Shown here: positions 15,093-42,085 of the stretch, piece by piece
Numbering within the stretch: the first letter of the stretch is position 1
How the letters are laid out: every line of letters starts with the position of its first letter
IMG/VR virus record: IMGVR_UViG_3300031576_000009
Span: 1-64,000 of that record
Source: a virus
Strand: one strand, 5' to 3'
Length of the DNA: 64,000 bases
Notes under the pieces: model-generated
Database searches by the model: none
The model's input: only the letters and a program-made list of their open reading frames with translations
What the model was told of the DNA's origin: nothing
Made by a program: the position numbers and the translations under genes

Positions 15093-15410
15093 CTACGATT
15101 CCTCCTCTAGTACCACCGTGGGGTCCGCCAGCTCCTCCAGCTTGCCACGCCGGATCAGCTGCACGAGCGCCATCGGCTCTTCAGGAGTACCAGTCTGCAG
15201 CTCACGAGCACGGACTTCGCTCACCCCAGCAGGCCAATCCGCGAGGAGGTCCTGCGCTTGCACGTCAGGAAGGCGTCGTTTTTCGATGATCTCGACGTAC
15301 ACGATGTTCCCGTGCTCGAATCGAATCGTGATCTCACCGTAGAAGTTCTCGTACGCAAAGTCGCTGATGAGCTTCCGCAACCTCCGCAGCTGTGAAGCGC
15401 GCTCAATCAC
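15093..15410 (-). CDS. hypothetical protein with DUF2292/YezD-like segment
   Basis: YGEITIRFEHGNIVYVEIIEKRRL; GTGA overlap with the upstream stop. Confidence 0.55.
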   Translation of the reverse strand: MIERASQLRRLRKLISDFAYENFYGEITIRFEHGNIVYVEIIEKRRLPDVQAQDLLADWPAGVSEVRARELQTGTPEEPMALVQLIRRGKLEELADPTVVLEEES

Positions 15411-22308: not shown

Positions 22309-22403
22309 GAGCTTCAGCTCCTATGACTCATCATCTTCTCCAGCTTGTCTGATGGAAGACATTGTTTCCGACCTTTCCCCCGAACGAGCGCTCTTCCGGT
22401 GAG

Positions 22404-23402
22404 CTACGCGCCGAGGCTCCCCTTTGCTTTCTGCTGCTGTTCCTTGGCCTCGCGAATCTGACGCTTCAGATTCTGGTACTCGGACACGTCAGACGGGCGT
22501 CCCGACTTCCGTGCACGTACTTCGGCGTCGGCGAGCTTCGCTTCGAGCCCCTTGATCTGCTGATCCGAAGGCGCTCCACGACCTCCACCGGAACCCGCAC
22601 CGCCGTCTCCATTGGCCGCTTCGACGAGGAAGGGCATCTTCTGGAGAGCGGCAGCAACGCCCTCCGCGATCGAGACGATCGAACCATCCTTCTGCCTGTA
22701 CACGAACGACTTCTGCTTATCGTCCCAGACAACGTTCTCGCGCAGGACCTTCACGCCGACTTCGAGGTCGACGCACCGATTCTTCTGCAGTGCGGTGGCG
22801 AGCTCGGTGTCCCGAATTGCCGACGCCCTGGCCGTATCGGCTTCCTGCCGGAGCTTGCGCTCCTCCACGACCATCTTCCTGGTCTCGTCGTTGTCCTTCT
22901 TCTGCTGGTCGAGCGCATCGATCGCGCTCTTCAGCTGCTTGCCCTGGATGAACTGCGCCTTCTTCCAGGCTCGGTACGCGGCCGGGTCCTTGATACCGTT
23001 CGGGATCGTCAGCTCACGCTCGAACTCTTCGAGCTCGGGGAATGGGCTGTCCTTTCCGTTGCCGGTACCGCTGCCCGCACCGTCCCCTTCGAGGTCGCCA
23101 GCGGCCTCTTCGAGGAGCTGCTTCAGCGTGGTGTAGTCGGTGTTGAGCGCATCGAACGCTTCGCGATCCTTCTCGCGAGCCGTACGCTCCGCCTTCAGCT
23201 TCGCCTCGTGCTTGTCGCTCTCACGCTTGATGATACTGTTGAGAAGCTCCTGCTGCTCGGTCGTGAAGACGACCTTCGGCTTCTCCCCGCTACCGTCTCC
23301 GGTACCGGTACCGGTTCCGCCCCCGGCGTCACCACCACCGTCGACTGAACAAAACCGTCCAACGAACACGAGATTCCCGTACTGGTCTCTTACGTACATC
23401 AC
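22404..23402 (-). CDS. capsid scaffolding protein
   Basis: Gly-rich N-terminus, FTTEQQELLN, coiled coil, PFLV...GAGSGG C-terminus; between portal and capsid. Confidence 0.8.
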   Translation of the reverse strand: MMYVRDQYGNLVFVGRFCSVDGGGDAGGGTGTGTGDGSGEKPKVVFTTEQQELLNSIIKRESDKHEAKLKAERTAREKDREAFDALNTDYTTLKQLLEEAAGDLEGDGAGSGTGNGKDSPFPELEEFERELTIPNGIKDPAAYRAWKKAQFIQGKQLKSAIDALDQQKKDNDETRKMVVEERKLRQEADTARASAIRDTELATALQKNRCVDLEVGVKVLRENVVWDDKQKSFVYRQKDGSIVSIAEGVAAALQKMPFLVEAANGDGGAGSGGGRGAPSDQQIKGLEAKLADAEVRARKSGRPSDVSEYQNLKRQIREAKEQQQKAKGSLGA

Positions 23403-25243: not shown

Positions 25244-25488
25244 CAACGAATGAGCGCGTGTTCGTGCCGCATCAGATTGCAGGGACCACAGCGCCAGTGC
25301 CGGATGAGCCCGCGACGATTCGAGTGCACGACCTCCGAGTGCAGGACCATCGGGCCACCACACTGATCGCAGGTCTGCACAGCCACGGTGACCGGCTCGT
25401 GCTTCTCCTCGACCTGTCCAGGGAATGGCATCGCAGCGATCTCTGCGAGTGCTGCACAGAGATTGTCCAGGCCCTCAGTGGCTTGCAT
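25243..25488 (-). CDS. small Zn-ribbon protein
   Basis: CDQC...CGPC; overlaps both neighbours. Confidence 0.6.
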   Translation of the reverse strand: MQATEGLDNLCAALAEIAAMPFPGQVEEKHEPVTVAVQTCDQCGGPMVLHSEVVHSNRRGLIRHWRCGPCNLMRHEHALIR

Positions 25489-27869
25489 CAGTACAAACTC
25501 TCCATGCGTCGCGTGCGGACGGACGCGGCTCGCGTGCCGTAGCTGTACACGGCGTAGCGCAGGGCGTCGCTTGCGTGGTCGTTCTGCTTCACGATGACAT
25601 CCCGATTCGCGGTGCCGTCCCGTTCTACCTTGTGGCAGTACAAAGCACCGAGCTCTGCACGCAGTTTAGAACACCACTTGAAGATTCTCAATAGCGGCAG
25701 TTGCGTGGTCGGCTGCCGGCGGAACATGGCCTTCACCCGGTTGATTCCAGCGTAGACATCGTTGTTCGCTGGAATGAGGGATGGCCCGTTGTACCGACGC
25801 AAGTACTTCTGGAGATCGATGATCGCCTGCTTGCCGCTCGGGTCCGGGAACACCCACTCTTTCGAGCCGAAATCCGGGCTTGTACCGATCTGATCGGCGT
25901 GTCCTTCGAGTGGCCGGTCCTGATCACAGTAGTACTCGTGGTAGACGTACCAGGTCCCGCTGTGTGGATCGATGGCGCACTTCAGGTAGACGAAGTGCGA
26001 GCCGAAATCGATACCGGAGACGCGGGTCCAGTCGGCTGGGATTGGGAACGGATCACAGAGCCAAGGCTCCTCATCACGGAAGTGATCCCCGTACACGAGG
26101 ATCGCGCCGGAGGGGCGCAGATTCCGCCACTGCGTGTCCCAGGTATCCTTGTCGAGGAGCTGGACCTTCTTGACGAAGTCGTCGATCTTGTACCACCCGT
26201 CGCAGCTGTGGGCGATGCCGCCGCACATCTTCTCTTTGCGGCCATCCGGCATCAGCATCTCGTACGCCGGGCAGTCGCCGTACGTCTTGTCGCCCTGACA
26301 CTGACGCGTGCACTTCTCTAGCACCTCGAAGATGCACCACGAGTGGACCTTGATCTTCTTGTTGGCCGCCTCGTCGAGGAGCCGCTGCATCGTCCCCTTC
26401 TGGAACTTCCGGGTACTGGTCAGCGTGTCCTGGGCCTTCCATCCACCCTTCTCCATGGACATCTGCAAACCTTCTTGCAGCACGACCCACGGCATGAGCT
26501 CGATCTCGTCGCAGTTATGGACGAGGACGCCTTCTACGATGAAGCAGCGAACTCCGGGAACAGTCAGATCGTAAACAGGGCCGGTGGGTCCGCGATCAAC
26601 TGCAACAACCTCCACCACAGGTGCATGTGTTCGGTCCGTGCGTAGATCACGCGAAATCCCGTGGCTTCGAGCTCGATCTTCTTGCGTGCATCGCGCTCGA
26701 TCGATCGAGGCAAGTCGTGCCAGTACTGCCCGTGCACTTCGATCACTACGTTCCTGGTCAGGAGCACAAAATCGAGAATCCACTGCCTCCACACCACCTG
26801 ATGCTGAAAGGTCAAACCCCACAACCGAAGCAGCTCGATCATGCGATGCTCGGCTGATGAAACGAACCGTTTCGATCCTCGCCAACGCGCGGCGACCCGC
26901 TTCTCGTTCATCACCAGATGCGTACACTTCCGACAATGTTTCGTGTAACGCGTCGAGAGTGGTTTTCCACAACCTGGACACGGTTGCGGACGCCACCGAC
27001 TCGCTGCCTTCTCCAGCTTCCAACATTCGCGGCACAGATGTAGCCGCGTTGGTTGATGGCCATGAAGTTGCCGTTCGCACTTCGTACAGAAGTGAATCGC
27101 GAGCCGACGAACAGGGCCACGCCGTCCCAAGTTTGGTGCCAGCTTTGCAACGATCAGCGCGCAGCCACACTCCCTCGGCAGTGAGGAGACCGTGGTCTGG
27201 AGTACAGATGAGTGTTCGTCCGTTCGAGAGGTGGAGACGGATTGTCGCTTCAATTCCGGTTTGGCGAACTTCCGTGACATATCCGGTCGAAACGCGTTCG
27301 CCGGGGCGGATGAACTTGATCGCTTTGGTCGTGCCATCCGCCATCAATACACCACACTCCTCGAAAATGCAACGGAACTTGTTCGGGTGTGGTGAATTCA
27401 TACCATGATAGGTCCCCGCGATGATCTTCACCTTCGAGCCGTTCCAGAATTGGGTCTCCTTCATCAGCGGGCCACGCATGACCTGCTGGAAGAGGAGTCC
27501 TTCGTCGGTGAGGAATCGCATGAAGTACTCGTACCCACGATTCGCCTGCTCCATGATGGCGCCCGCAGAGCAGACTTCGACGCCTGGCTTGAAGAGCGCA
27601 TCGAGGATGTTGAGGATCGCGACCAGGAGCGTCTTGCCCCCACCGCGATTGGCGAATCCGATCGAGGTCCTGACCCGCTCGAAGAACTGATCAGAGAGGA
27701 AGTCCATCGGAGAGCAGTGCTGGGGGCATATCTTCTGTCGGGGCACACGGAAGCCGAAAAACTCCCAGACGAAGTCCCAGAGTTCGTCCTCCGTCCGCAG
27801 TCCGCGTTCGAGATGGTACTGGAACAGACTGCGACGGAGAACGTCCTTCGATGGAGCAGCGATTCCCAC
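25488..27869 (-). CDS. terL: terminase large subunit, intein-containing
   Basis: Walker A ANRGGGKT; Walker B KFR|CDEIE split by the intein; nuclease GIDFG...DPSG...NDHASDALRY. Confidence 0.95.
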   Translation of the reverse strand: MGIAAPSKDVLRRSLFQYHLERGLRTEDELWDFVWEFFGFRVPRQKICPQHCSPMDFLSDQFFERVRTSIGFANRGGGKTLLVAILNILDALFKPGVEVCSAGAIMEQANRGYEYFMRFLTDEGLLFQQVMRGPLMKETQFWNGSKVKIIAGTYHGMNSPHPNKFRCIFEECGVLMADGTTKAIKFIRPGERVSTGYVTEVRQTGIEATIRLHLSNGRTLICTPDHGLLTAEGVWLRADRCKAGTKLGTAWPCSSARDSLLYEVRTATSWPSTNAATSVPRMLEAGEGSESVASATVSRLWKTTLDALHETLSEVYASGDEREAGRRALARIETVRFISRASHDRAASVVGFDLSASGGVEAVDSRFCAPDQERSDRSARAVLARLASIDRARCTQEDRARSHGISRDLRTDRTHAPVVEVVAVDRGPTGPVYDLTVPGVRCFIVEGVLVHNCDEIELMPWVVLQEGLQMSMEKGGWKAQDTLTSTRKFQKGTMQRLLDEAANKKIKVHSWCIFEVLEKCTRQCQGDKTYGDCPAYEMLMPDGRKEKMCGGIAHSCDGWYKIDDFVKKVQLLDKDTWDTQWRNLRPSGAILVYGDHFRDEEPWLCDPFPIPADWTRVSGIDFGSHFVYLKCAIDPHSGTWYVYHEYYCDQDRPLEGHADQIGTSPDFGSKEWVFPDPSGKQAIIDLQKYLRRYNGPSLIPANNDVYAGINRVKAMFRRQPTTQLPLLRIFKWCSKLRAELGALYCHKVERDGTANRDVIVKQNDHASDALRYAVYSYGTRAASVRTRRMESLY
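26514..27371 (-). mobile_element. intein (286 aa) inserted in TerL Walker B
   Basis: C1 (CIFEECGVLMADG), block B ICTPDH, block F VYDLTV, block G VLVHN|C. Confidence 0.93.
26564..27337 (-). CDS. Zn-finger + Vsr/DUF559-type endonuclease nested in the +1 frame of the TerL intein (start uncertain)
   Basis: CTKC/CREC/CPGC/CRKC then SSAE...QVV...ILDF...VIEVHGQYWH...ERDARK...LEATGFRVI. Confidence 0.85.
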   Translation of the reverse strand: MARPKRSSSSAPANAFRPDMSRKFAKPELKRQSVSTSRTDEHSSVLQTTVSSLPRECGCALIVAKLAPNLGRRGPVRRLAIHFCTKCERQLHGHQPTRLHLCRECWKLEKAASRWRPQPCPGCGKPLSTRYTKHCRKCTHLVMNEKRVAARWRGSKRFVSSAEHRMIELLRLWGLTFQHQVVWRQWILDFVLLTRNVVIEVHGQYWHDLPRSIERDARKKIELEATGFRVIYARTEHMHLWWRLLQLIADPPALFTI

Positions 27870-29463: not shown

Positions 29464-29577
29464 TCACTCTCTGATTCGGAACAACCGACCGCACTGCACG
29501 CACTTCACGATGCCCATCAATCGATCGATGATGAGGCACTTGAACGAAGCGCACTTGGGATCGGGGCAACGGATCAT
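29464..29577 (-). CDS. 37-aa Zn-ribbon peptide
   Basis: MIRCPDPKC...KCVQCGRLF; GGAGG RBS and ATGA overlap. Confidence 0.55.
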   Translation of the reverse strand: MIRCPDPKCASFKCLIIDRLMGIVKCVQCGRLFRIRE

Positions 29578-30020
29578 GGATGTACCTCCTCAGGAAGAAC
29601 AGGCCACCGGTACACAAGCACGCGATGAATCGGGAACGTGGCGATCGAGACCGCATCCCCCTGATTGCCGCCCAGGAGCCACAATCGACCCTTCTCGTCC
29701 CTGTCGATCAGGAAGCCAACATGTCCCCGCGTAGTCGAATCCCCGCGGCTGAGTACCACGATCGAACCGTACTGAATCGTCTCCGGCGGCTTGCCCCATG
29801 CTGCCCACGAGCGCGCTGCCGCCGAACGCGTGCTCTTGATGCCGGCTCGCTCCATCACCCAGCAGGCGAATGCCGAACACCACGCGACCTCGTCATACGT
29901 GGCCTTGAGCGTCGTTTCCTGATGATAGGCCACGATGCGAGGATTGTCGCCCGAACCGACGATCTCGCGAACGCCGAGCTCATTCAGCGCTTCCCACATC
30001 CAGGGCGCAGACTGGCTCAC
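29574..30020 (-). CDS. endolysin / cell-wall peptidase, TIGR02594 (NlpC/P60-CHAP-like)
   Basis: PWM..A..ELGVREI.G..NPRI...DEVAWCSAF...SAAARSW...GHVGF...LGGNQ. Confidence 0.9.
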   Translation of the reverse strand: MSQSAPWMWEALNELGVREIVGSGDNPRIVAYHQETTLKATYDEVAWCSAFACWVMERAGIKSTRSAAARSWAAWGKPPETIQYGSIVVLSRGDSTTRGHVGFLIDRDEKGRLWLLGGNQGDAVSIATFPIHRVLVYRWPVLPEEVHP

Positions 30021-30322
30021 GCGTCCTCCGGGTCCGTCCCGCGGCCGTAGATCACGTCCGCTACCGAGTCGAACTTCGCCACATCGATCAGTCCCGTCTT
30101 GATCAACTCCAGGAGCCCGATCGCCTGAGGAAGGTCACAGCCGCTCGCGATCACGTCTGGGCACTCGTTGTCGTGGATCATGACGACCATGACCTTCTTG
30201 ATGCAGTTCCGGCGAGCGATGAGGTAGTCGAGTACATCAAACACACCCGAGCTCGGCAACAGGCGAATCTTCGCCAGTAGCTGCTGCGTCGGTGCCTTCT
30301 TCTTGCTCGCTGTCTTGCTCAT
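30017..30322 (-). CDS. hypothetical protein
   Basis: ATGA/GTGA overlaps at both ends. Confidence 0.6.
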   Translation of the reverse strand: MSKTASKKKAPTQQLLAKIRLLPSSGVFDVLDYLIARRNCIKKVMVVMIHDNECPDVIASGCDLPQAIGLLELIKTGLIDVAKFDSVADVIYGRGTDPEDA

Positions 30323-32412
30323 GGAACGCTCGCGATGGTCAGGCACTTCTTTGCTCCTGCAGTGTCCAGGAAACAGATTTTGCCGCCGGGAGGCACACAC
30401 CATTCCCCGATACCACACCGTGTGAGCTTCGTGTCCGTCGGACCAGTACCCGGCCCAGTTTCGATCCCCGGAGGGTCGCTCGGCTTGGTGAGCGCCACGA
30501 CCGGATGATCGATGACCATCTGGTTCTGCGGGCTCCACGGCCCGTAGACGACCGGACGCCCGTCACACACACCGCCCTGAGGTTGATAGCCGGGGGCTCG
30601 CCAGTCCGCGATCGCATAGTAGCGCTCCTGACAGGCGCCCGGAGGCGCGGCGACGGCCTCGGTGATGTGCGTGAAGCCAGCACGCTCGACGCAGATGCGG
30701 ATCGTGCCGGTCTCGTCCATGGTGCAGGAACGACGGTTGTCCATGCGCCACACCGGAGGCATCGGCCCCCATTTCGCGCACGCCTGGTGTGTCATGTAGT
30801 CGCAGTTCTCGCCCTCGGCGTCGCAGTTGGTGCCGACCGTCTTGTAGTAGTTGCCGTTACCCGGACCGTTCTTCGGCTCGACCGGGTGCCCCACACAGGT
30901 CTGCTCTCCGGGCTTCCAGTAGACCCCCATGCCGAACATCGAGCCGCGCAGGCTCAAGAGCTGATAGCCGCTGTAGTCCTTGTGACTCTCGGTCTCGACC
31001 TCACCGGCTGTATCGAAGACCTGCACGACCTGGCTGGGCTTCGCCAACTCCAGCACGCGCCAGGAGTAGTAGTCGCTCCCGATGTTCAGCACCATGCGCG
31101 CGTTGTTCCGGTAGGTGCACTTCTGCGGCGCGGGGCATTGGCTGTCGAGCGTGCAGGGCACGTTCTGGAAAAGGTTGTCCTGACAGATGCCGTTGGGCGC
31201 GCTCACCTCGAAGGCACAGCCCCAGGTCGGGTTGGCGGGGTCCTTCGCCGGGCACTGCACCTTGCGTACGAGTCGGTTGATGCCAGGCACCTTGGCACCC
31301 TGCGAGATGCCGCCGTTGTCGGGGTTCTTCTGCGAGAGCGAGAACTCGAAGCCCCAACCCGGAGGGAACTTCCCCTTCGGGCTCAGATAGGCGCGTACCT
31401 TCGGCTTCGTCTTCGGTGCGCCCAGACCCCACGAGCGCATGACGAAGCTCGGAGCATAGCCGAAGTCAGGCATCTCCAGGTTGCCGCGATCGGTGCGACC
31501 ATCAGCCATGCCGTGGATGGCGAAACTGTACCACCCCACGGGATCGCCGTCCTCGTAGCCACGATCCACGAGAAAGCTCTCCTGCCCATTGTCCCCGAAG
31601 TTGTTGCGCTGCGTCGGTCGGTTCAGGGAGTAGTTGCCGAACTCCACGTCGCTCTGATTCTGCGTGGCAGTCCAGCCTCCCAGGCGGAGCACTGCCGTAC
31701 CGTCGGGAATGCCGGCTTCCAGCTCCGCACGGGGAAAGGCGACAGCCGTCCAGATACAGGTACCATCCTGTACACTACCACCGATCCACGGCCAAGATGG
31801 TTCCGGTTCACCGGTCGTGCAGGCGGTATTAGTTCGGAAGGCGGGCTCGTAGTAGCCGTAGGCACGGATGATCCGCGCGCCCGCGGGGTAACTTGCCTCA
31901 GTCTCCCAGAGCGTCGGGATGGCGAGCGGCTGCACCGTACCGGTCGTGCCGGCGGTCTTTACGAGGATGTCGAAACCGATCATCGGCTTTGCGCGGTACT
32001 GATCACCCACCTTCACCGCCGTGTTGCGCGGGATGTCGGGCAGCATGCCGTGGCGTACCACGCCATCGTTGGAGACGCCTGCGATCCAGCGCCCCTGAGA
32101 GTTCACGATCCCGAGGACGGGGAAGCCAGGACCTGCCTGGTTCGGCGAGATGCGGAGAAGGTCCGCTGGGCCGCCACCGCTTGGCGGACAGGCCGGGCAG
32201 ACACCCGGATCACCCTTCGACCCCTGTGCACCTGTGAGCCCGGTGTCACCCTTCGGCCCTACGGGACCAGGCGGGCAGGTTGGTGGACAGGTTGTCGGAA
32301 GACAGGCACGAATCTTCGTGCAGCAATTCGTGAGCCTGTTACAGTCGAACGGAGCGGCATCGACCTGCCCATGGGTCAGCCCGAGCGCGAGTAGCGCTAG
32401 CAGTAGTCGCAT
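30319..32412 (-). CDS. secreted Cys-rich protein with collagen-like repeat (697 aa)
   Basis: signal peptide MRLLLALLALGLTHGQVDA; GPVGPKGDTGLTGAQGSKGDPG; many Cys. Confidence 0.8.
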   Translation of the reverse strand: MRLLLALLALGLTHGQVDAAPFDCNRLTNCCTKIRACLPTTCPPTCPPGPVGPKGDTGLTGAQGSKGDPGVCPACPPSGGGPADLLRISPNQAGPGFPVLGIVNSQGRWIAGVSNDGVVRHGMLPDIPRNTAVKVGDQYRAKPMIGFDILVKTAGTTGTVQPLAIPTLWETEASYPAGARIIRAYGYYEPAFRTNTACTTGEPEPSWPWIGGSVQDGTCIWTAVAFPRAELEAGIPDGTAVLRLGGWTATQNQSDVEFGNYSLNRPTQRNNFGDNGQESFLVDRGYEDGDPVGWYSFAIHGMADGRTDRGNLEMPDFGYAPSFVMRSWGLGAPKTKPKVRAYLSPKGKFPPGWGFEFSLSQKNPDNGGISQGAKVPGINRLVRKVQCPAKDPANPTWGCAFEVSAPNGICQDNLFQNVPCTLDSQCPAPQKCTYRNNARMVLNIGSDYYSWRVLELAKPSQVVQVFDTAGEVETESHKDYSGYQLLSLRGSMFGMGVYWKPGEQTCVGHPVEPKNGPGNGNYYKTVGTNCDAEGENCDYMTHQACAKWGPMPPVWRMDNRRSCTMDETGTIRICVERAGFTHITEAVAAPPGACQERYYAIADWRAPGYQPQGGVCDGRPVVYGPWSPQNQMVIDHPVVALTKPSDPPGIETGPGTGPTDTKLTRCGIGEWCVPPGGKICFLDTAGAKKCLTIASVP

Positions 32413-32672: not shown

Positions 32673-32890
32673 GAACCCCTCCTCCGGGCAGTACCCTGCA
32701 GCACAGCCGTGGCGGTCGCGTATGCCCGGGACTTTGACCACCGCGGGTTCTTCTTCATCAGCTTGATCGCCAAGGTCTCCCGCGCGATCCGCGCGGTCGA
32801 TCCTTTGTTGAAGTGTGCTCCACGACGTACCGCACTTTTTCCCCGATGAATCACCGCGCGCTGTGCGCTCTGACTTCGTGGAACTGGCAT
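32669..32890 (-). CDS. small basic protein (degenerate motif SAQRAVI)
   Basis: TGATG/ATGA overlaps; Arg/Lys-rich. Confidence 0.6.
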   Translation of the reverse strand: MPVPRSQSAQRAVIHRGKSAVRRGAHFNKGSTARIARETLAIKLMKKNPRWSKSRAYATATAVLQGTARRRGS

Positions 32891-33216
32891 CACTCTGCTC
32901 CCAGTTGCACCGGCCATCGTGGGCGGAACGTTCCTTCCGGCTCCGACACGTCACGAATGTTGCCGGCGATGAACGAATGAATCTGTCCCGCGCCGTGCAG
33001 CGTATCGCTCGCGTACACCATGAGTCGCCCGGAGGTCCGGTGCGGTTTGATCTCATACGGTCTGATCTCCCGTTCGACAACACTCCCGTCCTTCTTCCGG
33101 TACTCGATCGTGACCCGCTGCGGCGGCTCCATCCCACCCGCATGCTCGATCGCGTCGAGCTCATGCCGCTGCCGCACGCGAACAAAGGCGGAGACGAGGC
33201 GCTTCGAGAAGGTCAG
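32890..33216 (-). CDS. stand-alone WYL-domain protein (start uncertain: CTG 33216 or GTG 33177)
   Basis: VTIEYRKKDGSVVEREIRPYEI...VYA.D......HSFIAGNI. Confidence 0.75.
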   Translation of the reverse strand: MTFSKRLVSAFVRVRQRHELDAIEHAGGMEPPQRVTIEYRKKDGSVVEREIRPYEIKPHRTSGRLMVYASDTLHGAGQIHSFIAGNIRDVSEPEGTFRPRWPVQLGAE

Positions 33217-34394
33217 AGCTTCCTCCCGTACAGGCGATAGAACTCCTCGACGGCTGCCGTCTCAGGATGGTTCGCACGGCGCAAGCGCCGGATGAGGGAC
33301 GTAGGGTTTGAGGCTGCCCTGCCGTAACGTGTGAGTGGAACGTTCATACCACCAAACGACCACGGGGATTCGGTCGCCCGGCGATAGACCGTCTTCCGCT
33401 CTCCGAGATCGATCTCCCTGTAGTTGACACGCTTGATCCGCGACAGGATTGCCGCCGGCTTCGACGCCTTGCTGATTGCCACCTTAGTGGTCGTCGCTCG
33501 CTGCACACTGCGCGACGGCAAGGCGATGCGTTCGCGGGGAATGGTACTTGTACGTTGAAGCTCACGCAGAACAGTCCGGTGTCGTTCCGTAATACTCGGA
33601 GCTGACGAGATGGTGCGAAGATGCTGTACTGTATCAACTAGCCGAGCAGGAACACGATAATACATGCGTCCCTCTTTCTCAAACCGTGGTAGCCCACGGC
33701 GCACACCGGACAGCATCTGACCCACGGCGCGGCGCTCTCGCTCGATGATCGCCGGCAGTCCTCGCCCCTTGAAAACGATCGAGGGATTGGTCGTGATCTG
33801 CTTCGGTATTCCCCGCCGTCCCTCCAGTGCACGGCTGCCCAGCAGGGCGATCGGACCGCCCGCCACGTAGCCAAGCATCCCATGCACGCGCGTGAGCGCG
33901 GCCATGTTGGGCACCATGTAGAGCGAGCGACCACCGGGCCACATATCACCGGGGTAATCGGTACCAAGCCGGCGAGTTACTGCACGGCCGACCCGCTTGA
34001 CCAACTCGTTCGTCTGCCCTGAGAGCGCGCCCTGCTGCAGCGCGGTCCGCTTGCGTCCGAGCCAGCCACGGTAGGCCTGCTTCGCAAGCTCCTTTCCTTC
34101 ATCCGTCGTGCGGCGGATGCGCTTATCGAGGAAGAGGTGGAAGTCACCGACGAACTCGGTGAGCGGGCGCTTCACGTTGACGAAGCGGTTGACGAGTGAG
34201 CTGACCCGTACGCCCTTGACCGGACCACCGATTAGCATCCGCGCCAGGGACATCGATCCCGCTCGGCGCGCTCCCGCTCGCGCAAGGACGGCGCTGGAGT
34301 ATGCAGACTTCGCCCAGATCGCTCGCCACTGCGCCGCCGTCAGGCGGCGGTGCCGCGAAAGCATACGCTGGGTCCGTGAGAGTACCGCCATCAT
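33213..34394 (-). CDS. Arg-rich protein, motif family (QWRAIWAK)
   Basis: 393 aa, very basic; motif near the N-terminus; coupled overlaps. Confidence 0.75.
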   Translation of the reverse strand: MMAVLSRTQRMLSRHRRLTAAQWRAIWAKSAYSSAVLARAGARRAGSMSLARMLIGGPVKGVRVSSLVNRFVNVKRPLTEFVGDFHLFLDKRIRRTTDEGKELAKQAYRGWLGRKRTALQQGALSGQTNELVKRVGRAVTRRLGTDYPGDMWPGGRSLYMVPNMAALTRVHGMLGYVAGGPIALLGSRALEGRRGIPKQITTNPSIVFKGRGLPAIIERERRAVGQMLSGVRRGLPRFEKEGRMYYRVPARLVDTVQHLRTISSAPSITERHRTVLRELQRTSTIPRERIALPSRSVQRATTTKVAISKASKPAAILSRIKRVNYREIDLGERKTVYRRATESPWSFGGMNVPLTRYGRAASNPTSLIRRLRRANHPETAAVEEFYRLYGRKL

Positions 34395-35131
34395 AGCGAC
34401 GACTTCCGGTAGTTCCTCCGCGCCACCTGAAAGGTGCGCGCGAGCTCCAGGCGCCGAGACCGAATGCGGTTCACAACCGCCCGCTTTAGTGCCCGACGGG
34501 CACGATCATCAATCGTGATCCGACTGATCGCACTCTCCATTGGCGGCACTACCCCACGCCATTGTCCTGCTGCCCGCCGTACGGAGTCGGCCGAGATGCG
34601 AAAGTGCCGCATCACTTCCGCCTGTGTGTCGCTCAGCGGGCTACCGAACGCCGCACTGCGGATCGCCTTCGCGATCGGGCGCGAGGCCTTGTTGATGGCT
34701 GTCTTTCCGAACTGATAGGCGGCCTTCTGCGCATCGTCGGCCATCGATTCGAGTGGACGCTCGACATCGAGTGGCGAGGCGCGCTTGTGGAGCTTCCACC
34801 ACGGGGCAGTCGGATCGCCGGGGATCGCCTCCTTGGCGAACTTCCGACGAAGCACGTCGTGGAGAAGCTTCTTCAGCTTCCCAACGAGCACATCCTGTGT
34901 CCGCCAAGGCTCATTCGCCTCGAAGTGCTGGGTGAAGCCGACGACACGCTTCCCACCTTCGAAGTTCGGACGGACCGCTTCACCCAGACCGCTGGAGATA
35001 CCGGTGAACTTCTCCTTCGCCACGCCAACGATCGCGGCGACACGACCGTAGCGCGCGACACGCTGCGCAGCCTTGGCGAAGATAGCCCGCCACTGCTGAC
35101 GCGTGATCAGATGTCGGGCAGCGCTGAGCAT
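34391..35131 (-). CDS. Arg-rich protein, motif family (QQWRAIFAK)
   Basis: 246 aa; N-terminal motif. Confidence 0.75.
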   Translation of the reverse strand: MLSAARHLITRQQWRAIFAKAAQRVARYGRVAAIVGVAKEKFTGISSGLGEAVRPNFEGGKRVVGFTQHFEANEPWRTQDVLVGKLKKLLHDVLRRKFAKEAIPGDPTAPWWKLHKRASPLDVERPLESMADDAQKAAYQFGKTAINKASRPIAKAIRSAAFGSPLSDTQAEVMRHFRISADSVRRAAGQWRGVVPPMESAISRITIDDRARRALKRAVVNRIRSRRLELARTFQVARRNYRKSSL

Positions 35132-35134
35132 CGA

Positions 35135-35836
35135 TCAGTCGACGCGCTCCCGCGCCCGTGTAGCCCGCTGCCGTTCGAGCTCGCGAGCGATCCGCCGGTA
35201 CTCACTCTTATAGTGCGCGAGCTGCATCCCGCCCTCGTTCTCCATCGTCTTCAGGAGGTTGGTCATGTGCTCGGCCATGATCGCCTGCCCGAGCGGCGAA
35301 TTTTCCTGGCCGATGCGGCGGAGATTGTCGCGGAGCGACTTCACCTCGCTCAGGATGTGCTCGCGTTCGAAGCCGCGGCGGAGCTTGCTCCGCCGCTCGA
35401 TCGGATTCGTGAGCAGGCCCATGCGAGGCTCACCGCCCGTGATAATGGTCTGGATCGCCCCGAGGGGACGACGCAGACGCTTCCGCAGCGCCTCTTCGCG
35501 GGCAACGCTGCGCTCTGCGAGATGGCGCTCGGCCTCCCGTGCGAGATAGTCGAGCCCCCAGGAGATTGGGAGCTCAGTGACCTTCGCGGCCGTCGAGGCG
35601 ATCCGGGTCGCAACATCCGACACGTCCGCTGCCGCCACGCGCGCTTTGGCCTTCTCCTTCTGCATGGCGGCGTACCGCTTCGCACCACCAGGCGCTCCCA
35701 AGATGTACTTGCCGCCTCTGGCTGCGGTGCGACCGACGGCCGCGGCGCTCACACGAATCGGCACGGCGATACGACGCCCGCCGTGCCGAATGGTTCGCCA
35801 GATGACTCCCTCTCGCTTGGTCGACTCGTCTGCCAC
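35135..35836 (-). CDS. Arg-rich protein with N-terminal WRTIRHGGRRIAVPI motif
   Basis: AGGAG RBS + GTG; 233 aa. Confidence 0.7.
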   Translation of the reverse strand: MADESTKREGVIWRTIRHGGRRIAVPIRVSAAAVGRTAARGGKYILGAPGGAKRYAAMQKEKAKARVAAADVSDVATRIASTAAKVTELPISWGLDYLAREAERHLAERSVAREEALRKRLRRPLGAIQTIITGGEPRMGLLTNPIERRSKLRRGFEREHILSEVKSLRDNLRRIGQENSPLGQAIMAEHMTNLLKTMENEGGMQLAHYKSEYRRIARELERQRATRARERVD

Positions 35837-35845
35837 AGTAGACTC

Positions 35846-36535
35846 CTAATAGTCGTGCTGCCGCTGGATCACTCCGGCGACGCGCGGATCGTACGTGGGG
35901 CGATGTGGACGGCTGACGACCACCGGCGCCGAGTACTGTTCGATGCCGCGCTGCAGCTGCGTCCGATGGCGTACCTTCGAGCGCGCACGCGTGTAGAGCC
36001 TGTAGCCGATGTGTCCGGCACCGATGACCGGCAGTGCGGTTGCGGCGAATCCGGCTGCTCCGCGCACGCGGCGCAGGTATGTGAACGCGGACTGCATCGC
36101 TTCGCGCCCTCCTCCAGGAGCAATGAACGCCCGGTGGATGGAGGCCTTCCCCTGCCACGCCCGCTTCGCGGCCAGCATGGCGGCATGTGTTGCCGTGTTC
36201 GCAGTGTCGCCTACACGAGCGGCGCCAACGGCTTCGTAGAGCGATCGCGCGATCCGCGGAGCGCGCATGGTCGCGACATACGTCTTGCGCAGAACCTGCG
36301 TCCGTCCCCGGAACGTTCGGGACAGCCGATGCGCCCCATAGGCAGCGAGCCCGTATCGCGCCGCGATGGGCACTTCCGGATAGTCCCGGTCCGGGTTGGC
36401 GGCGATGAGCCCGACTGTTCCGATGGCCACGCGCCGATGCACGGTCGGTGAGCGCACGAAGCCGCCGAACTTCTCCCGTGCCAGCCGGAGTGCGATCGCA
36501 ACCGCAGCTCTTTGTTGTTGGTTCACGAATCGCAT
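35846..36535 (-). CDS. Arg/Ala-rich protein, motif family (QQQRAAVAI)
   Basis: GAGG RBS; hydrophobic Gly/Ala segments. Confidence 0.75.
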   Translation of the reverse strand: MRFVNQQQRAAVAIALRLAREKFGGFVRSPTVHRRVAIGTVGLIAANPDRDYPEVPIAARYGLAAYGAHRLSRTFRGRTQVLRKTYVATMRAPRIARSLYEAVGAARVGDTANTATHAAMLAAKRAWQGKASIHRAFIAPGGGREAMQSAFTYLRRVRGAAGFAATALPVIGAGHIGYRLYTRARSKVRHRTQLQRGIEQYSAPVVVSRPHRPTYDPRVAGVIQRQHDY

Positions 36536-36538
36536 GCG

Positions 36539-36805
36539 TTACCTCACGTGCACCACTGGTGCGCGGACCTTCTGGAACGGCCGCTGGAAGCGGAACAGCC
36601 GCTCCCGAAGTATTCTACTCACTCGCCGGATTGTTAGCACGTCGCCCATCCGAGCTCCGAGACGGATGATAGGATGTCGCAGCACACGAGCAGCGACAAC
36701 CGCAGCCCCAAGGCTCGCGAGCTTGATGTTCCGACGGCGCCGGGCTCGTCGATTACGGATCGAGGCCATCACAGCCCGACGCTGTTCATCCGAAGTGAAG
36801 CGCAT
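36539..36805 (-). CDS. Arg-rich protein, motif family (DEQRRAVMAS)
   Basis: TGATG overlap; RNRRARRRR tract followed by a hydrophobic stretch. Confidence 0.7.
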   Translation of the reverse strand: MRFTSDEQRRAVMASIRNRRARRRRNIKLASLGAAVVAARVLRHPIIRLGARMGDVLTIRRVSRILRERLFRFQRPFQKVRAPVVHVR

Positions 36806-36975
36806 CACGGACCTGTACGGAACCGTTCTGGCATTCCCGATGCGAATGCCGTGCGATTAGCTCCTTTCATCACCGAGGGCCCACTGGTACGGAATAGCGG
36901 CTTCGCCTTCTTGGGACCCGATTGCTTGCGTCGGATCGTCTTGATCGAGGTCATGTACTTCCGTGGCGTGAACAT
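36805..36975 (-). CDS. 56-aa basic protein
   Basis: MFTPRKYMTSIKTIRRKQSGPKKAKP...; TGATG overlaps at both ends. Confidence 0.55.
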   Translation of the reverse strand: MFTPRKYMTSIKTIRRKQSGPKKAKPLFRTSGPSVMKGANRTAFASGMPERFRTGP

Positions 36976-36994
36976 CAGCGTCCCACCCTCGTCT

Positions 36995-37597
36995 TCATGC
37001 CGCTCTCCTCATCTTCGCGAACTCACTCACGGTGACGTACTGATTCAACCGCTTGATTGCCCGCTGTTGAATCTTCTTAATGCGCAACGGCTTCATACGC
37101 AACCGCTGGGCGACGGCCTTCGCGGGCAAATCCTGCAGCACTCGGAGTTGCAGTACTCGCCGTTCTTGGAGTGGGAGACGGCGCAGGAGCTGCTGCACGT
37201 GCACGCGGGACTCGACCGCACCGATCCCACCATCATCGGCGTGGCGTCCGCCGTGCACCTCGGGAGCAAACTCGACAGTCGACGGGAGCGGGCCAAGCGC
37301 CGCGAGCTTCTTGATGTGCCGCTCCGGGACGCGTACGGTCGTCTTCTGAATCTCGCGCAGGACCCGATTGCGGATCGCGATTACCGCCCCGGTCGAGAAG
37401 CGCGTGCTCCGGCGTGGGTTGTAGCGGCGGGCGAACTCCAAGAGCCCCACATTTCCGGCCGAGATCAGGTCTTCGCGCATGCCCTCGATACGTGGGCCGA
37501 ACTTGCGCATGTGCTGCCCCACGACCTTGTGGACGAGCCCCTGGTTATGCTCCGCCAGGCGGGCGAATATGGCCCGACGCTGCCGATCGGACATCAT
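36995..37597 (-). CDS. sigma70-family sigma factor (regions 2 and 4) with N-terminal QRRAIFARL motif; may start at GTG 37654
   Basis: HNQGLVHKVV...EDLISAGNVGLLEFARRYNP...RFST; region 4 LPLQERRVLQLR...AVAQRL...IQQRAIKRL. Confidence 0.88.
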   Translation of the reverse strand: MMSDRQRRAIFARLAEHNQGLVHKVVGQHMRKFGPRIEGMREDLISAGNVGLLEFARRYNPRRSTRFSTGAVIAIRNRVLREIQKTTVRVPERHIKKLAALGPLPSTVEFAPEVHGGRHADDGGIGAVESRVHVQQLLRRLPLQERRVLQLRVLQDLPAKAVAQRLRMKPLRIKKIQQRAIKRLNQYVTVSEFAKMRRAA

Positions 37598-37650
37598 CTT
37601 CCGACGACCGAGCCGGCGTGCTCCCATACGGCGAATGGCGGCCTGGCGTC

Positions 37651-37845
37651 TCACGTCTTGTCCTTCTTCTCCTCCGGCGGAGGGTGCTCCGTGAGCAAAC
37701 GCTCCAGCTGCGCGATCTGCGCCATCTCGATCCGCACGTTCATGCGATTGATCAGTTTGATCGCGATCGGCTTGCCGACGTGCTTCGCCACGCGATTGAA
37801 GTGGATCGCACGGAGTAGGTTTGATCGGTGTGGTTCGTTCATCAT
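37651..37845 (-). CDS. hypothetical protein (64 aa)
   Basis: GAGGTGG RBS, ATGA overlap. Confidence 0.55.
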   Translation of the reverse strand: MMNEPHRSNLLRAIHFNRVAKHVGKPIAIKLINRMNVRIEMAQIAQLERLLTEHPPPEEKKDKT

Positions 37846-38267
37846 GATCCACCACCTCGACGATCACGCTCGTGTCGCTCTCGATCTGCTTTCTGCAAAT
37901 TCTCCAGGCGATCCACGAAACGCTCCATGCCCAACTGGGTCCGATTGTGAAAGTCGCGATCCTGCTCTTCGTGCATCGTCTGTCGAGTTTCCTGCTTGAT
38001 CATCCGACCATTCAGTTTCGCCATCTCGGTCTGTACTTCACCAATCTTCATCTCGATGCCGGACAGATCGCGACGGTGATCGGCACGAAAGAGATCGAAC
38101 TCCTGCTTGTTCTCCTTGCGGAGCTCCAAGATCGATCCCTGCATCGCTGACTGGCTATGATCGATCTTCGAACGCAGCTGTCGCGCCATGCGCAGCATGC
38201 CGACGAAGCCCGTCGTCATGAAGAACAAGATCAGCCCACTTAGGACTTCGCCCCAGTTGATCGACAT
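37842..38267 (-). CDS. membrane-anchored coiled-coil protein
   Basis: N-terminal TM (WGEVLSGLILFFMTTGFVGML) followed by a coiled coil; GGAG RBS. Confidence 0.7.
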   Translation of the reverse strand: MSINWGEVLSGLILFFMTTGFVGMLRMARQLRSKIDHSQSAMQGSILELRKENKQEFDLFRADHRRDLSGIEMKIGEVQTEMAKLNGRMIKQETRQTMHEEQDRDFHNRTQLGMERFVDRLENLQKADRERHERDRRGGGS

Positions 38268-38548
38268 GCGTTCTCCATACGCTTGATCGCCCGAGCTAGA
38301 TGGCAGAACTGTGAACGATTGAACTGTCGGTTTTGCAGAATCTCCTGCCGGTTCCTCTGTGACTGTTTGGCGAGCTCCTCCGGCGGATAGGTAACCCGCA
38401 GTCCCGTAAGCGTCGCAACAATAATCAACACGGAGGCGCACGCGATGACGATGATGGTCCAGATCACCACCCGCTCGCCGGTCAGCGGGCGCCAACGTCG
38501 CGCTACCCCTGGCTCTGCCAACGATGCGCTTCCAGGCTCTTCTTCCAT
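38240..38548 (-). CDS. single-TM membrane protein (start uncertain)
   Basis: VVIWTIIVIACASVLIIVATLTGL then a helical domain. Confidence 0.55.
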   Translation of the reverse strand: MEEEPGSASLAEPGVARRWRPLTGERVVIWTIIVIACASVLIIVATLTGLRVTYPPEELAKQSQRNRQEILQNRQFNRSQFCHLARAIKRMENACRSTGAKS

Positions 38549-39336
38549 GCCTCGAATCCCGGTGGGAGGTCGATGTCGATCGGAAAGCGCTGGCCGCTGA
38601 TCTCCATGTGCCAGCAGAACATCCGCGTATCGACGAGGAAGGGGAACCGCTTCGTGACGAGCGACTTCCATCGCGTCTTGGCCAATGCCTTCGACTCGAT
38701 GACTCTGGTACAGAAGTTCAGGTCCTCGGTGCCGACCTGCCGTGCCCACATTCCCGTCTCGGGATCACAGAACGTGGCCCGCGGCGTGATGAACACCTGA
38801 CGGACCTCGCTGCGATCGGACAGGCGAATCTTCGACGCCTTCTTCGCCATCGCTATCAGGAGCTCGCGATGAATCATGGTGAAGCCCATGCCCATTCCAT
38901 CGCACCACACCTGGTCACCGAGCTTGAAGTCCCGGAACGCCCCGTTGCCGCGCCCGCGGTAGATGAGCGGCTCCGCCGGGTAGCTCTTGGTGTAGTACAG
39001 ACCGGCGATGATCGGCGTGGGAGGCTTCCGCATGAACTCGTCCGCCCAGATGAACGTGTTCGGAGGACAGAGCACGTCGTGATCGAGGAAGAAGAGCCAC
39101 TCCCGTCCGTTCTGCAGGAAGGTACGCACCAGCAGATTGCGCGCCTCGGCGACGCTGTAGCCCAGCGTCGAGGAAGTCAGCTGGGCCGTGTGCGTCGACT
39201 CCCAGTTGGTCGGGATAATGATGCCCGAGTTGGCCAGATGCCACTCGTACCGAATGACGCCCGTCGTCGGGATGCAGAGATGCACCCGTGGCCGATGCGG
39301 CGTCTTGTTCACCTTCAGGTCGAGTACTTTTCCCAT
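38503..39336 (-). CDS. GT-A fold (GT2-like) glycosyltransferase
   Basis: VAEARN...WLFFLDHD...GMGFTMIHR...GTEDLNFC. Confidence 0.85.
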   Translation of the reverse strand: MGKVLDLKVNKTPHRPRVHLCIPTTGVIRYEWHLANSGIIIPTNWESTHTAQLTSSTLGYSVAEARNLLVRTFLQNGREWLFFLDHDVLCPPNTFIWADEFMRKPPTPIIAGLYYTKSYPAEPLIYRGRGNGAFRDFKLGDQVWCDGMGMGFTMIHRELLIAMAKKASKIRLSDRSEVRQVFITPRATFCDPETGMWARQVGTEDLNFCTRVIESKALAKTRWKSLVTKRFPFLVDTRMFCWHMEISGQRFPIDIDLPPGFEAWKKSLEAHRWQSQG

Positions 39337-39364
39337 CGGTACCTCTACAGACGGAAGCCACTCA

Positions 39365-39751
39365 TCAGTAACCTCGCCGCTGAATGCGCTGTGCGACCCG
39401 GCGTTGAATGTCCCGACCGCGCGCCCGTGCGATGAGGCCCACGCGCCGCGTCCGCGCCTGAGCAACGACCGTTCGCGCGCCGCGCGCTGCGCTGGACATA
39501 CCGAACTTGAGCCCGCTCGTGATCGCCTTCGAGATGCCGAGTCGTGACGCTGCTGCGCCGCCGAGCACTCCTGCGCCCAGAACCCCAGCTGCAAGGAGGC
39601 CGTATCCGGCCACCCTCCCGGCCCGGCCGAGATCACGATATGTTGCTCCACTCTTCGTCCGCTTCGTCCCACGGCCACTGCCGCTCTTACCCTCGTTCAG
39701 CCGAGCGAACATGGCAGCGCGCTGCTGCGGAGACATACGAGTAACGGGCAT
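39365..39751 (-). CDS. basic protein with Gly-zipper TM segment, motif family (QQRAAMFARL)
   Basis: AGGAG RBS; GYGLLAAGVLGAGVLGGAAA. Confidence 0.75.
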   Translation of the reverse strand: MPVTRMSPQQRAAMFARLNEGKSGSGRGTKRTKSGATYRDLGRAGRVAGYGLLAAGVLGAGVLGGAAASRLGISKAITSGLKFGMSSAARGARTVVAQARTRRVGLIARARGRDIQRRVAQRIQRRGY

Positions 39752-39753
39752 GA

Positions 39754-40341
39754 TCAAATCTCCTGTGATCCCTTCTGCGCGATATTGACCTTACGTTTCA
39801 CGCCGACCTTGAGGAGCTTCTTCAAGAGCTCCGGCTCCTTCACGACACGCATGATGACTTCCATGTTGCCGACCACGTTCCATTCCAGCCGCTCCAGGAA
39901 GAGCGGCGGTGGCTCGTAAATGCGGTACAGGATGTTCGGCTGACCGTTCTGTGGGCGTGGATCGAAGTACTGCCAGGTGGCCTCGTTGAACCCCGGTCGC
40001 GTGTGCGTCGGGTCCTGGTAGGCACCGAACGAGCCTGCGTACGGTACCGAGATCAGCACCTGACAGCCATGCTTCCCGACCCGGTAGATTTCGGCCATGA
40101 CCGCGAGGAAGTTCCGCGGATCGATGTGCTCCAGGATATGGCTGGCGAGGATCGTGATGCAGCTGTCATTCGGGATCGGCCACGGCATCTTCTCCAAATC
40201 GTGGATGAAGTCCGCTTCGGGGATCGGACGCTTGTCCATCCCAACGTAGCCCTGCTGCTTCGCCCGACCACAGCCGATGTCGAGCTGGATGCCGCCCTTC
40301 TCATCGAGCAGCTTCTGCAGTTCGTCGTGTGCGACGGCCAT
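39754..40341 (-). CDS. class I SAM-dependent methyltransferase (type 11-like)
   Basis: LDIGCG...HDLE..PWP...SHILEH...EIYRV...DPTH. Confidence 0.88.
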   Translation of the reverse strand: MAVAHDELQKLLDEKGGIQLDIGCGRAKQQGYVGMDKRPIPEADFIHDLEKMPWPIPNDSCITILASHILEHIDPRNFLAVMAEIYRVGKHGCQVLISVPYAGSFGAYQDPTHTRPGFNEATWQYFDPRPQNGQPNILYRIYEPPPLFLERLEWNVVGNMEVIMRVVKEPELLKKLLKVGVKRKVNIAQKGSQEI

Positions 40342-41067
40342 TCACGTACTCCTCTGTCGACGACGATCCCGAATCCGCTGCCAGAAGGACAGCGTCGGTG
40401 ACGCCGTGATGTGGTACAGTCTGCGAATCTGGTGCGCCTGGCGCGTGGCAGGCAACGCAGTCGACGCGAGCGTGCCGGCCGCGAAGAGGATCGCACCCTT
40501 CCCGGAAACCTTTGGCTGCTCCTCGATGAGCCGCGGCTGACTCCGATGGTGCTGGAGCTTGATGCCGGTGTACGCCGTACCGACAGCTGCCGCCGCGAGC
40601 GGGACGACATGCCCGAGCAGAAAGCCCATGCGGGTGCTGGTCAGATTATTGCGCGACCATATCCGCTTCGGCGTGTAGATCGGAATCGAGTGGACGAGCG
40701 CGCGTTCACCTAGAAAGCTGCTGACGCCCAGCAGGGCTTGCCCCAAGAGCGCCTTCTTCTTCGTCCGCACGGTCTCGGAGGCCGGCTTCCCCCGGAACTT
40801 CTGAGCAAAAATTGTGCCAATTACCGGTGCGGCGGCGTAGGCGGCCACATACGGACCCCATGCCTTGGGGAACTTCCGCAGGGGGACGTGGGAGACACTC
40901 TCACGGATCGCAAAACCACCCGCCAGGAGGCTCCCAGAGCCCACCAGAGCCATTTGCACGCCGGGGGATAGCTTCCCCCACCGACGCTTCACGACACGGG
41001 CTCCTCTGCGGACCTGACGCAGCCGAGCGAACATCGCCCGCCGCTGGTCGTCCGGGATGAGCCTCAC
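40342..41067 (-). CDS. basic multi-TM protein, motif family (DDQRRAMFARL)
   Basis: several hydrophobic segments; GTGA overlap. Confidence 0.75.
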   Translation of the reverse strand: MRLIPDDQRRAMFARLRQVRRGARVVKRRWGKLSPGVQMALVGSGSLLAGGFAIRESVSHVPLRKFPKAWGPYVAAYAAAPVIGTIFAQKFRGKPASETVRTKKKALLGQALLGVSSFLGERALVHSIPIYTPKRIWSRNNLTSTRMGFLLGHVVPLAAAAVGTAYTGIKLQHHRSQPRLIEEQPKVSGKGAILFAAGTLASTALPATRQAHQIRRLYHITASPTLSFWQRIRDRRRQRST

Positions 41068-41549
41068 AGGCGGAGCCTCGCCCGGAAGAGCCGCTGGACC
41101 CGGCCACTCGACCCGATGAGCCCTCCGATGAGCTGCGGCCCGACCTTCTCGATCTTCTGACGCTCTGTGCGGCGCCCGAGGATTGTCCGGCGGATGAGGT
41201 AATCCCCAAGCACGTAGGCCGGAATCTCGACCGCGGCCGTACGCAGGATGTTTCCCGCGAGTACGCGCCCACGTACGCGTGTGCGAAAGAGCTTCGTCCC
41301 GCGGCCCACGGCCCGCGCGGAGGCGCGCACGCCGAAGCGGCCGAAGAACTTGGTCACCGGGCGTGCAGCGCCGAGCCTGCTAGTCAGGTAGCCACCCACG
41401 GCGAAGGCCGGAATCGCGATCGCGGTCTCGGTCACGTACGGATGGCGCTGATAGAACGAACGAGCGATTGCCTGACCTCGTGCGATGGGTCGAGCTCCAC
41501 GGAGCCGAGCGAAGATTGCACGACGCTGTTGTTCGTTCTGGAAGGTCAT
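41064..41549 (-). CDS. basic membrane-type protein, motif family (EQQRRAIFARL)
   Basis: ATGA overlap at 41549. Confidence 0.75.
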   Translation of the reverse strand: MTFQNEQQRRAIFARLRGARPIARGQAIARSFYQRHPYVTETAIAIPAFAVGGYLTSRLGAARPVTKFFGRFGVRASARAVGRGTKLFRTRVRGRVLAGNILRTAAVEIPAYVLGDYLIRRTILGRRTERQKIEKVGPQLIGGLIGSSGRVQRLFRARLRL

Positions 41550-42085
41550 GTGAGAAGCTTCAGTACAGGTTGGGTCTTCGCCATCCACACACGCATATTT
41601 CGCATGCGGGCCGCAGGCGTGTAGGTTGGTGCGAAGGTCCGCTTCAGCACCGATCTCATTTTCGCACTCGCTGACCACATCTTTGGGCGAACGCTTCGCG
41701 TGACAACACGAACGACGTTCCGAATACCTCCCGGCCCGAGAGCAGCGATCGGGAGTGAGGCAAGTCCGCCGACAACAAAACCAGCACTCTGCTGCATCGT
41801 CGACTTCGTGCTCTTTTGCTTATCGACATTGAATCTATTCACGCCGCTGAGCGCAAGTGCCGTACCGGTAAGGAATCGCGACATCGACATCCTGGACAAC
41901 ACGACTGGAGCACCGCCGCGCCGCCGCCGAGCGGACATCATGGCCCGCGCGTTCCCACGCACGAGTATTCCCGTACCGGCTCCATACATCACCCCAGCAC
42001 TGAAGCCCTTGCCGAAGGGGGTTGTCCCACGCAGCCGGGCGAACATGGCGCGGCGCTGTCGGTCATCTCGTCGTATGGTTCTCAT
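41546..42085 (-). CDS. basic protein with hydrophobic segments, motif family (DRQRRAMFARL)
   Basis: ATGA overlap. Confidence 0.75.
   Translation of the reverse strand: MRTIRRDDRQRRAMFARLRGTTPFGKGFSAGVMYGAGTGILVRGNARAMMSARRRRGGAPVVLSRMSMSRFLTGTALALSGVNRFNVDKQKSTKSTMQQSAGFVVGGLASLPIAALGPGGIRNVVRVVTRSVRPKMWSASAKMRSVLKRTFAPTYTPAARMRNMRVWMAKTQPVLKLLT

Follow-up and report, generated by a model that had tools for sequence, protein, structure and literature searches.

The window analyzed here covers the first 64 kb of an IMG/VR virus record that consists of one contig (IMGVR_UViG_3300031576_000009; 101,720 bases, with an estimated completeness of 79%), and nearly all of its genes are on the minus strand. 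Between 33.2 and 42.1 kb, nine minus-strand genes encode proteins with the motif Q-[RW]-[RA]-A-[MIV]-[FWMA]-A near the N-terminus, the motif Q falling at residue 5 to 22 of the open reading frame (ORF). The array is located upstream of the terminase, portal, scaffold and capsid genes and on the identical strand. From sequence comparisons we propose, tentatively and with a probability that we place somewhat short of even, that this peptide is a capsid-targeting (cargo-loading) tag that brings unrelated proteins into the assembling phage head. As far as literature and family searches reach, the peptide appears to be undescribed: no curated model in Pfam, NCBIfam or PHROG was found to lie over the motif itself, and the motif strings were not found in the literature searched. 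This agrees with the first-pass annotation of the window, which had not recognized the motif from any described system.

The motif array

The genes of the array are listed below (window coordinates and strand; aa, amino acids; pI, isoelectric point).

41546-42085 (-): p1, 179 aa, pI 12.0, one Gly/Ala-rich hydrophobic segment; QRRAMFARL at 42032-42058
41064-41549 (-): p2, 161 aa, pI 12.0, Arg 18%; QRRAIFARL at 41502-41528
40342-41067 (-): p3, 241 aa, GTG start, pI 12.0, two hydrophobic segments; QRRAMFARL at 41020-41046
39754-40341 (-): interleaved, motif-free S-adenosylmethionine (SAM)-dependent methyltransferase
39365-39751 (-): p4, 128 aa, pI 12.0, one glycine-zipper-like hydrophobic segment; QRAAMFARL at 39698-39724
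37842-39339 (-): two interleaved, motif-free genes, ~278 aa and 217 aa
36995-37597 (-): p5, sigma-70 family protein, 200 aa; QRRAIFARL at 37556-37582
36539-36805 (-): p6, 88 aa, Arg 26%; QRRAVMASI at 36758-36784
35846-36535 (-): p7, 229 aa; QRAAVAIAL at 36488-36514
35135-35836 (-): Arg-rich 233-aa protein within the array, motif-free
34391-35131 (-): p8, 246 aa; QWRAIFAKA (W sub-variant) at 35069-35095
33213-34394 (-): p9, 393 aa; QWRAIWAKS at 34305-34331

The sequence bears out each of the nine gene starts and peptide strings as the first-pass annotation wrote them. A six-frame regular-expression scan of the whole 101,720-base genome recovered exactly these nine copies, where chance would be expected to supply 0.005 (mean of amino-acid shuffles of the six-frame translation) or 0.013 (analytic estimate). 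The probability that chance would place all nine no further than residue 30 of the protein concerned is approximately 6e-8. For nine of nine genes the annotated frame was the best of six by codon usage. Several of the array genes start 4 nt inside the preceding stop, as p2 does with respect to p1, and p2, p4, p6 and p8 are also present as independent gene calls (P0003, P0010, P0005 and P0007, respectively).

A comparison of the five best copies across the nine-codon core gave 35 synonymous and 10 non-synonymous codon differences, and the DNA upstream of the motif genes contains no shared or conserved stretch. Together, the synonymous excess and the lack of common flanking DNA indicate that selection has acted on the peptide rather than on a DNA repeat, as had been argued earlier from three codon strings that we found to be quoted correctly. 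Outside the motif the proteins are dissimilar: once the motif was removed, no similar pair was detected (blastp E >= 0.37; phmmer E >= 0.003 with a 10-sequence database). The description of the bodies as dissimilar therefore holds, and simple paralogy through one longer shared domain is ruled out. All nine carriers are very basic (pI 11.5-12, arginine 12-26%), and Gly/Ala-rich hydrophobic segments are found in four of them.

Only p5 belongs to a recognizable family; the other eight carriers do not. It matches Sigma70_r2 (32.0 bits against a cut-off of 24) and Sigma70_r4 (28.5 bits against 24.1) in Pfam, and its closest solved relatives are FliA and RpoS, with the alignment beginning at residue 13. 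The motif is positioned directly N-terminal of region 2.1.

The copies differ in how closely they follow the consensus. The most divergent and weakest is that of p7, which retains about half of the consensus, and on sequence grounds its membership is doubtful. The AVMA sub-variant of p6 is also found elsewhere, for example as QRKAVMAKL in contigs L006, L019 and L030, whereas the adjacent QW copies of p8 and p9 form a private sub-variant that was not met outside the window phage. The public gene call for p9 (346 aa, from Met48) leaves the motif out; we favor the longer form because of its ATGA overlap with the p8 stop. No homologue of p9 other than itself was found among 5.8 billion proteins, and the ESM Atlas gave a low-confidence model with sub-threshold leads only. 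No match was found for p3 among annotated phages. Of the interleaved pair, the ~278-aa protein has no family match above threshold and its 217-aa neighbor has one hydrophobic segment.

The motif outside the window phage

A back-translated pattern led to the viral contig L006, and a word-indexed profile search to multi-copy proteins such as P0001. A scan of one genome per prokaryotic species with the motif pattern returned 35 loci, 23 of which have a true in-frame copy. Metagenome-assembled genomes (MAGs) of the PVC superphylum (Verrucomicrobiota, Kiritimatiellia, Lentisphaerae, Planctomycetota and 'PVC group') supply 20 of these 23. A Mu-like portal, protease or capsid gene is present within 8 kb of the motif at 18 of the 23 true loci; the linkage analysis covers these genome loci and two viral loci, against a total of 177 sequence clusters. 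The clusters were obtained at E <= 1e-3 by comparing a profile of 58 copies with 1.84 billion representatives, the profile being built mostly from Mu-like copies and biased towards them. Of 151 proteins, 118 have their first copy no more than 60 residues from the N-terminus, although metagenomic gene starts are uncertain and these positions are approximate. Most of the remainder are of the protease-scaffold type, with the copy at about residue 150-250, or are multi-copy proteins. N-terminal position and linkage to head genes, which the first-pass annotation had proposed looking for, were thus both found, and the motif is concentrated in head-morphogenesis modules rather than at random positions in non-phage proteins.

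The motif has an extended consensus, hydrophobic-x-N-[RAGW]-x(1-8)-[PQ]-M-[ST]-[DE]-x-Q-R-[KR]-A-M-F-A-[RKH]-[ML], usually with a glycine run next. Both alanines are invariant, and the Q and first R almost are; at the second Arg position most of the family has Lys, and the AVMA sub-variant recurs in several lineages. In the typical gene order, the portal is followed by a small or giant motif protein and then by a protein in which protease domain, motif, glycine run and coiled coil succeed one another; after this come a large protein with the motif at its N-terminus (often with a staphylococcal-nuclease, or SNase, domain), two small proteins and the capsid.

A scan of 102 motif proteins identified 19 as Mu-like prohead protease-scaffold proteins (PF10123, Mu-like_Pro), in which the motif stands directly after the protease domain. 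Six have an SNase domain, one has an ArdA domain (P0072, confirmed against PDB 2W82) and one has an InPase domain. No match was found in annotated phages for P0053, a carrier of the nuclease type. The viral contig L006 contains three copies, two within a Mu-like protease-scaffold protein and one at the N-terminus of the next gene. The product of this gene (710 aa) resembles the SNase-domain carriers and has no Pfam match, and the gene lies between a Mu-type portal and a capsid gene. Four PHROG labels that might have been taken for separate cargo types ('DarB-like antirestriction', 'endolysin', 'minor head protein' and 'virion structural protein') were discarded, as all of them trace to one domain of a single protein, P0054.

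Several giant proteins of approximately 1100-1200 aa (L030:3992-7636 (-), L019:1-2328 (-), P0001, P0012 and P0013) carry three to five copies. In P0001 (1128 aa), for instance, four or five copies are present; this protein was not found in viral contigs. Their genes directly follow the Mu-like portal gene, and the internal copies are typically found behind [LI]-A-N-A-G-P-M. They might represent polyproteins, or each might comprise several products nested in frame.

A few occurrences fall outside this pattern. In a Thermoplasmatota (archaeal) MAG with a GC content of 34%, a 138-aa protein (L022:1662-2078 (+)) begins MNKKMTDEQRKAMFAK and has the full N-terminal motif; it is outside the PVC group and adjoins a small ribbon-helix-helix-like ORF. 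A separate family of ~190-aa proteins on AT-rich viral and metagenome contigs (L002, L003, L005, L048, L049 and L053) has QRRAMFASL in its interior, roughly 60 residues before the C-terminus and behind a '...YAA.NEFGGPF' block reminiscent of Mu G and tail-completion proteins. Either the peptide recurs here in a different context, or the likeness is accidental. The Catenulispora peptidase-like ORFs L028 and L029 and several wrong-frame matches were treated as chance, as was L060:1092-1120 (+), an endonuclease III-like start with the N-terminus QQRRAIFARLRAANPDPKSEL. As the latter case shows, unrelated proteins can acquire the core RRAIFARL.

A candidate capsid-targeting peptide

Outside the window phage, the peptide occurs almost only in head-assembly genes of phages of the Verrucomicrobia group, which suggests that it is probably a head-loading tag. 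The carriers in Mu-like phages either must lie inside the procapsid, as the protease-scaffold proteins do, or plausibly lie there. The first-pass annotation had proposed a tag for capsid loading on the basis of the window alone. Head-module context, N-terminal position, unrelated bodies and the attachment of the peptide to prohead protease-scaffold proteins, nuclease-domain proteins and one ArdA-type protein all speak for this proposal, which remains putative. Searches turned up no relative of the window phage to compare with it.

In the mechanism that we envisage, [ST]-[DE]-x-Q-R-[RK]-A-[MIV]-[FM]-A-[RK]-[LM] would serve as a docking peptide that can be moved between proteins and probably folds into one short amphipathic helix. 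The [ST]-[DE]-x-Q start and the amphipathic stretch after it suggest a single short N-capped helix, and the peptide has invariant small residues at i and i+3 and a Met/Phe/Leu face. Such a helix might dock on a procapsid component, be it the scaffold, the inner capsid face or the portal. In Mu-like phages, the glycine run would then act as a flexible tether between the docking peptide and any body. In the window phage, the peptide sits at the extreme N-terminus of eight very basic proteins without a family and of one sigma factor, and all nine would be packaged alongside the DNA and ejected, probably into the next host. If the peptide does target capsids, it follows that the sigma factor would be packaged and injected. 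We consider it rather unlikely that the peptide is a general, transferable tag across unrelated PVC phage lineages, with the window phage injecting its sigma factor together with protamine-like basic proteins; in that case the incoming genome would be accompanied by a phage-encoded subunit that sets the promoter specificity of the host RNA polymerase.

A functional parallel is provided by the T-even phages, whose internal proteins are a highly diverse set with only a capsid targeting sequence (CTS) in common, by which they are loaded into the scaffolding core; those of T4 are encapsidated via this core and injected with the DNA, and a foreign staphylococcal nuclease has been artificially packaged using the T4 tag (PMC3012670). 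In the window phage, too, proteins that are otherwise unrelated have a brief conserved peptide near the N-terminus, and here as in T4 IPI, IPII, IPIII and Alt such a peptide is the sole common feature of a diverse set of basic proteins. The SNase packaged artificially in T4 has a counterpart in the SNase-domain proteins that carry the motif naturally. T4 Alt, a packaged CTS carrier, is an enzyme that acts on the host RNA polymerase, and both sets appear to include a transcription-related protein, the one here being the sigma factor. By inspection, the motif shows no sequence resemblance to the T4 tag. The hosts also differ (PVC bacteria here, enterobacteria for T4), no prohead protease was detected in the window phage, and the motif, unlike the CTS, is also found inside protease-scaffold proteins, in up to five copies per protein and with glycine-run tethers.

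Other systems resemble the motif carriers in part. In encapsulins and microcompartments, cargo is docked inside an HK97-fold or other shell by a short peptide borne on a linker that is flexible and rich in Gly, and a docking peptide on a Gly-rich linker with putative shell docking is what we envisage here; encapsulin peptides, however, are usually C-terminal and have another consensus, while the present motif is N-terminal. Proteins of the SPP1 gp7/Mu gpF family and the Dar proteins of P1 are head-internal and portal-adjacent and carry enzymes or anti-restriction functions into the host. The giant multi-motif proteins are similar in being encoded directly after the portal gene, but no MuF domain match was found for them in the libraries searched, and the sole DarB-like PHROG match is the one shared domain in P0054. 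Mu-like_Pro (PF10123) was matched by no ORF of the whole genome, the nine carriers included, and where it does match carriers elsewhere the model does not cover the motif.

Head genes of the window phage and points against capsid targeting

The head module (21172-27869) has the following genes.

25488-27869 (-): large terminase
23399-25363 (-): portal, phrog_145 family
22404-23402 (-): scaffold, acidic coiled-coil, motif-free
21172-22308 (-): major capsid protein

The top match of the major capsid protein among cultured phages has 29% identity. Several observations on this phage weigh against the proposal that the peptide targets capsids. No Mu-like or HK97-type (S78) prohead protease was detected in the 79%-complete genome, and the interval between portal and capsid contains no protease gene; Mu-like carriers, by comparison, have both a protease and a conserved pre-motif element. 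The scaffold of the window phage lacks the motif. The array includes motif-free genes, enzymes among them, and the hydrophobic segments in four of the nine carriers raise the possibility that these are membrane proteins of the infected cell.

The remaining points concern the comparison with other phages. No cultured phage was found with the motif, and the sole Verrucomicrobia phage in the annotated collection, the Mu-like Akkermansia phage DTMo-2021a, is motif-free over the 18 kb examined. By blastp, no protein is common to the window phage and the motif-carrying Mu-like phages. Its portal and capsid match no profile built from those of the Mu-like carriers, and the portal families differ (phrog_145 in the window, PF06074 in the Mu-like carriers). 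A strongly conserved peptide that would bind non-homologous partners needs explaining, and a host factor would be the simpler account. No relatives of the window phage were found in viral contigs via its sigma factor or portal, and the strict motif pattern revealed no window-like array in metagenome contigs.

Alternative explanations

A host partner is the likeliest of the alternatives. The peptide could bind a PVC-specific host component or nucleic acid and act in the infected cell, with localization, stabilization or takeover as possible roles, and not in head assembly; we judge this unlikely. It would explain why a near-identical peptide is found in two phage lineages without any other detectable common protein, and why it is conserved despite differing portal and capsid families. 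The origin of 20 of the 23 genome loci in PVC MAGs fits as well, as do a basic peptide on nine carriers with a pI near 12 and a sigma factor carrier that must bind the host RNA polymerase. The PVC restriction, however, may reflect module exchange within a common host range, and takeover leaves unexplained why carriers outside the window phage are overwhelmingly head-module proteins, prohead protease-scaffold proteins included.

The second alternative is that the peptide is an element of head maturation, either a docking or cleavage signal for the prohead protease or a part of the scaffold, and not a cargo tag. We regard this as improbable. The position of the motif directly after the protease domain in Mu-like phages favors it, and the conserved hydrophobic-x-N-[RAG]-x-P that precedes the motif resembles the end of a protease domain. 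A Met is present at -4 in 22 of 28 internal copies, which fits nested in-frame scaffold genes; in Mu-like phages, scaffold genes are indeed nested in frame within the protease gene (PMC2628397). The upstream N-x-x-P is nevertheless absent from all nine window copies, in a phage in which no protease of the Mu-like or HK97 type was detected, between portal and capsid or elsewhere, and this alternative does not account for such a phage. A role in maturation would also be compatible with a cargo tag, since the T4 targeting sequence is itself removed by the prohead protease.

An export or membrane signal, for example of the twin-arginine (Tat) type, is very improbable. The Tat consensus, R-R-x-hydrophobic-hydrophobic, has an invariant R-R, a hydrophobic region directly after it and an A-x-A cleavage site. 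R-R-A-M-F fits this pattern, R-R is followed by A-[MI]-F in five window copies, and four carriers have Gly/Ala-rich hydrophobic segments further downstream. In the family as a whole, however, R-K predominates over R-R, a glycine run or charged sequence rather than a hydrophobic region stands directly behind the motif, and the carriers include prohead protease-scaffold proteins and a sigma factor, all of which work in the cytoplasm, so that sequence features largely refute a Tat signal. Equally far-fetched is a relic of repeated gene-start duplication, a peptide without common function: clustered, translationally coupled genes and two adjacent QW copies would suit it, but the changes are mostly synonymous, no upstream DNA or downstream protein sequence is common to the genes, and the same peptide in 177 clusters from unrelated phages contradicts it.

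Implications

If capsid targeting is the correct explanation, the peptide would be a second capsid-targeting tag after that of T4, unrelated to it in sequence, readable from sequence alone and defined in phages of a bacterial superphylum that has received little study. The predicted virion cargo of a phage could be read off its metagenomic genome (in the present case it includes nucleases, a sigma factor and a protein of the ArdA type), foreign proteins might be packaged into PVC phages by the same means, and the injection of a sigma factor by a phage would become a testable idea. Even with a host partner, conservation of a 12-residue peptide among unrelated phages that infect one host group would mark a specific interaction.

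Tail genes and other features of the window

Candidate tail genes were found at the low-coordinate end of the window.

14693-15091 (-): tail terminator domain (PF12691)
5532-12944 (-): 2470-aa protein with a glycine-zipper segment
643-4716 (-): 1357-aa protein

The presence of a tail terminator indicates that the phage is long-tailed. Judged by position, the 2470-aa and 1357-aa proteins look like the tape measure and a tail-tip protein. With PF12691 upstream of these two, the arrangement points to a tail that is very long, not of the podovirus kind and equipped with an exceptionally long tape measure. A promoter-like pattern is present only at 474 and 643 and has no link to the array.

In the gap between the head and tail genes, 15407-18820 (-) encodes a 1137-aa protein with two glycosyltransferase-like regions and one methyltransferase-like region (PHROG matches). 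At the downstream end of the array, a 95-aa ORF (32890-33177 (-)) has a sub-threshold match to the WYL domain (19.5 bits against a cut-off of 21.8). The stretch from the array to the terminase also contains a gene for a Cys-rich 697-aa protein with a short collagen-like G-x-y stretch (30319-32412 (-)) and one for a protein with a lysozyme-like domain (29574-30020 (-)), which matches the PHROG baseplate hub/tail lysozyme family with an E-value of 9e-34.

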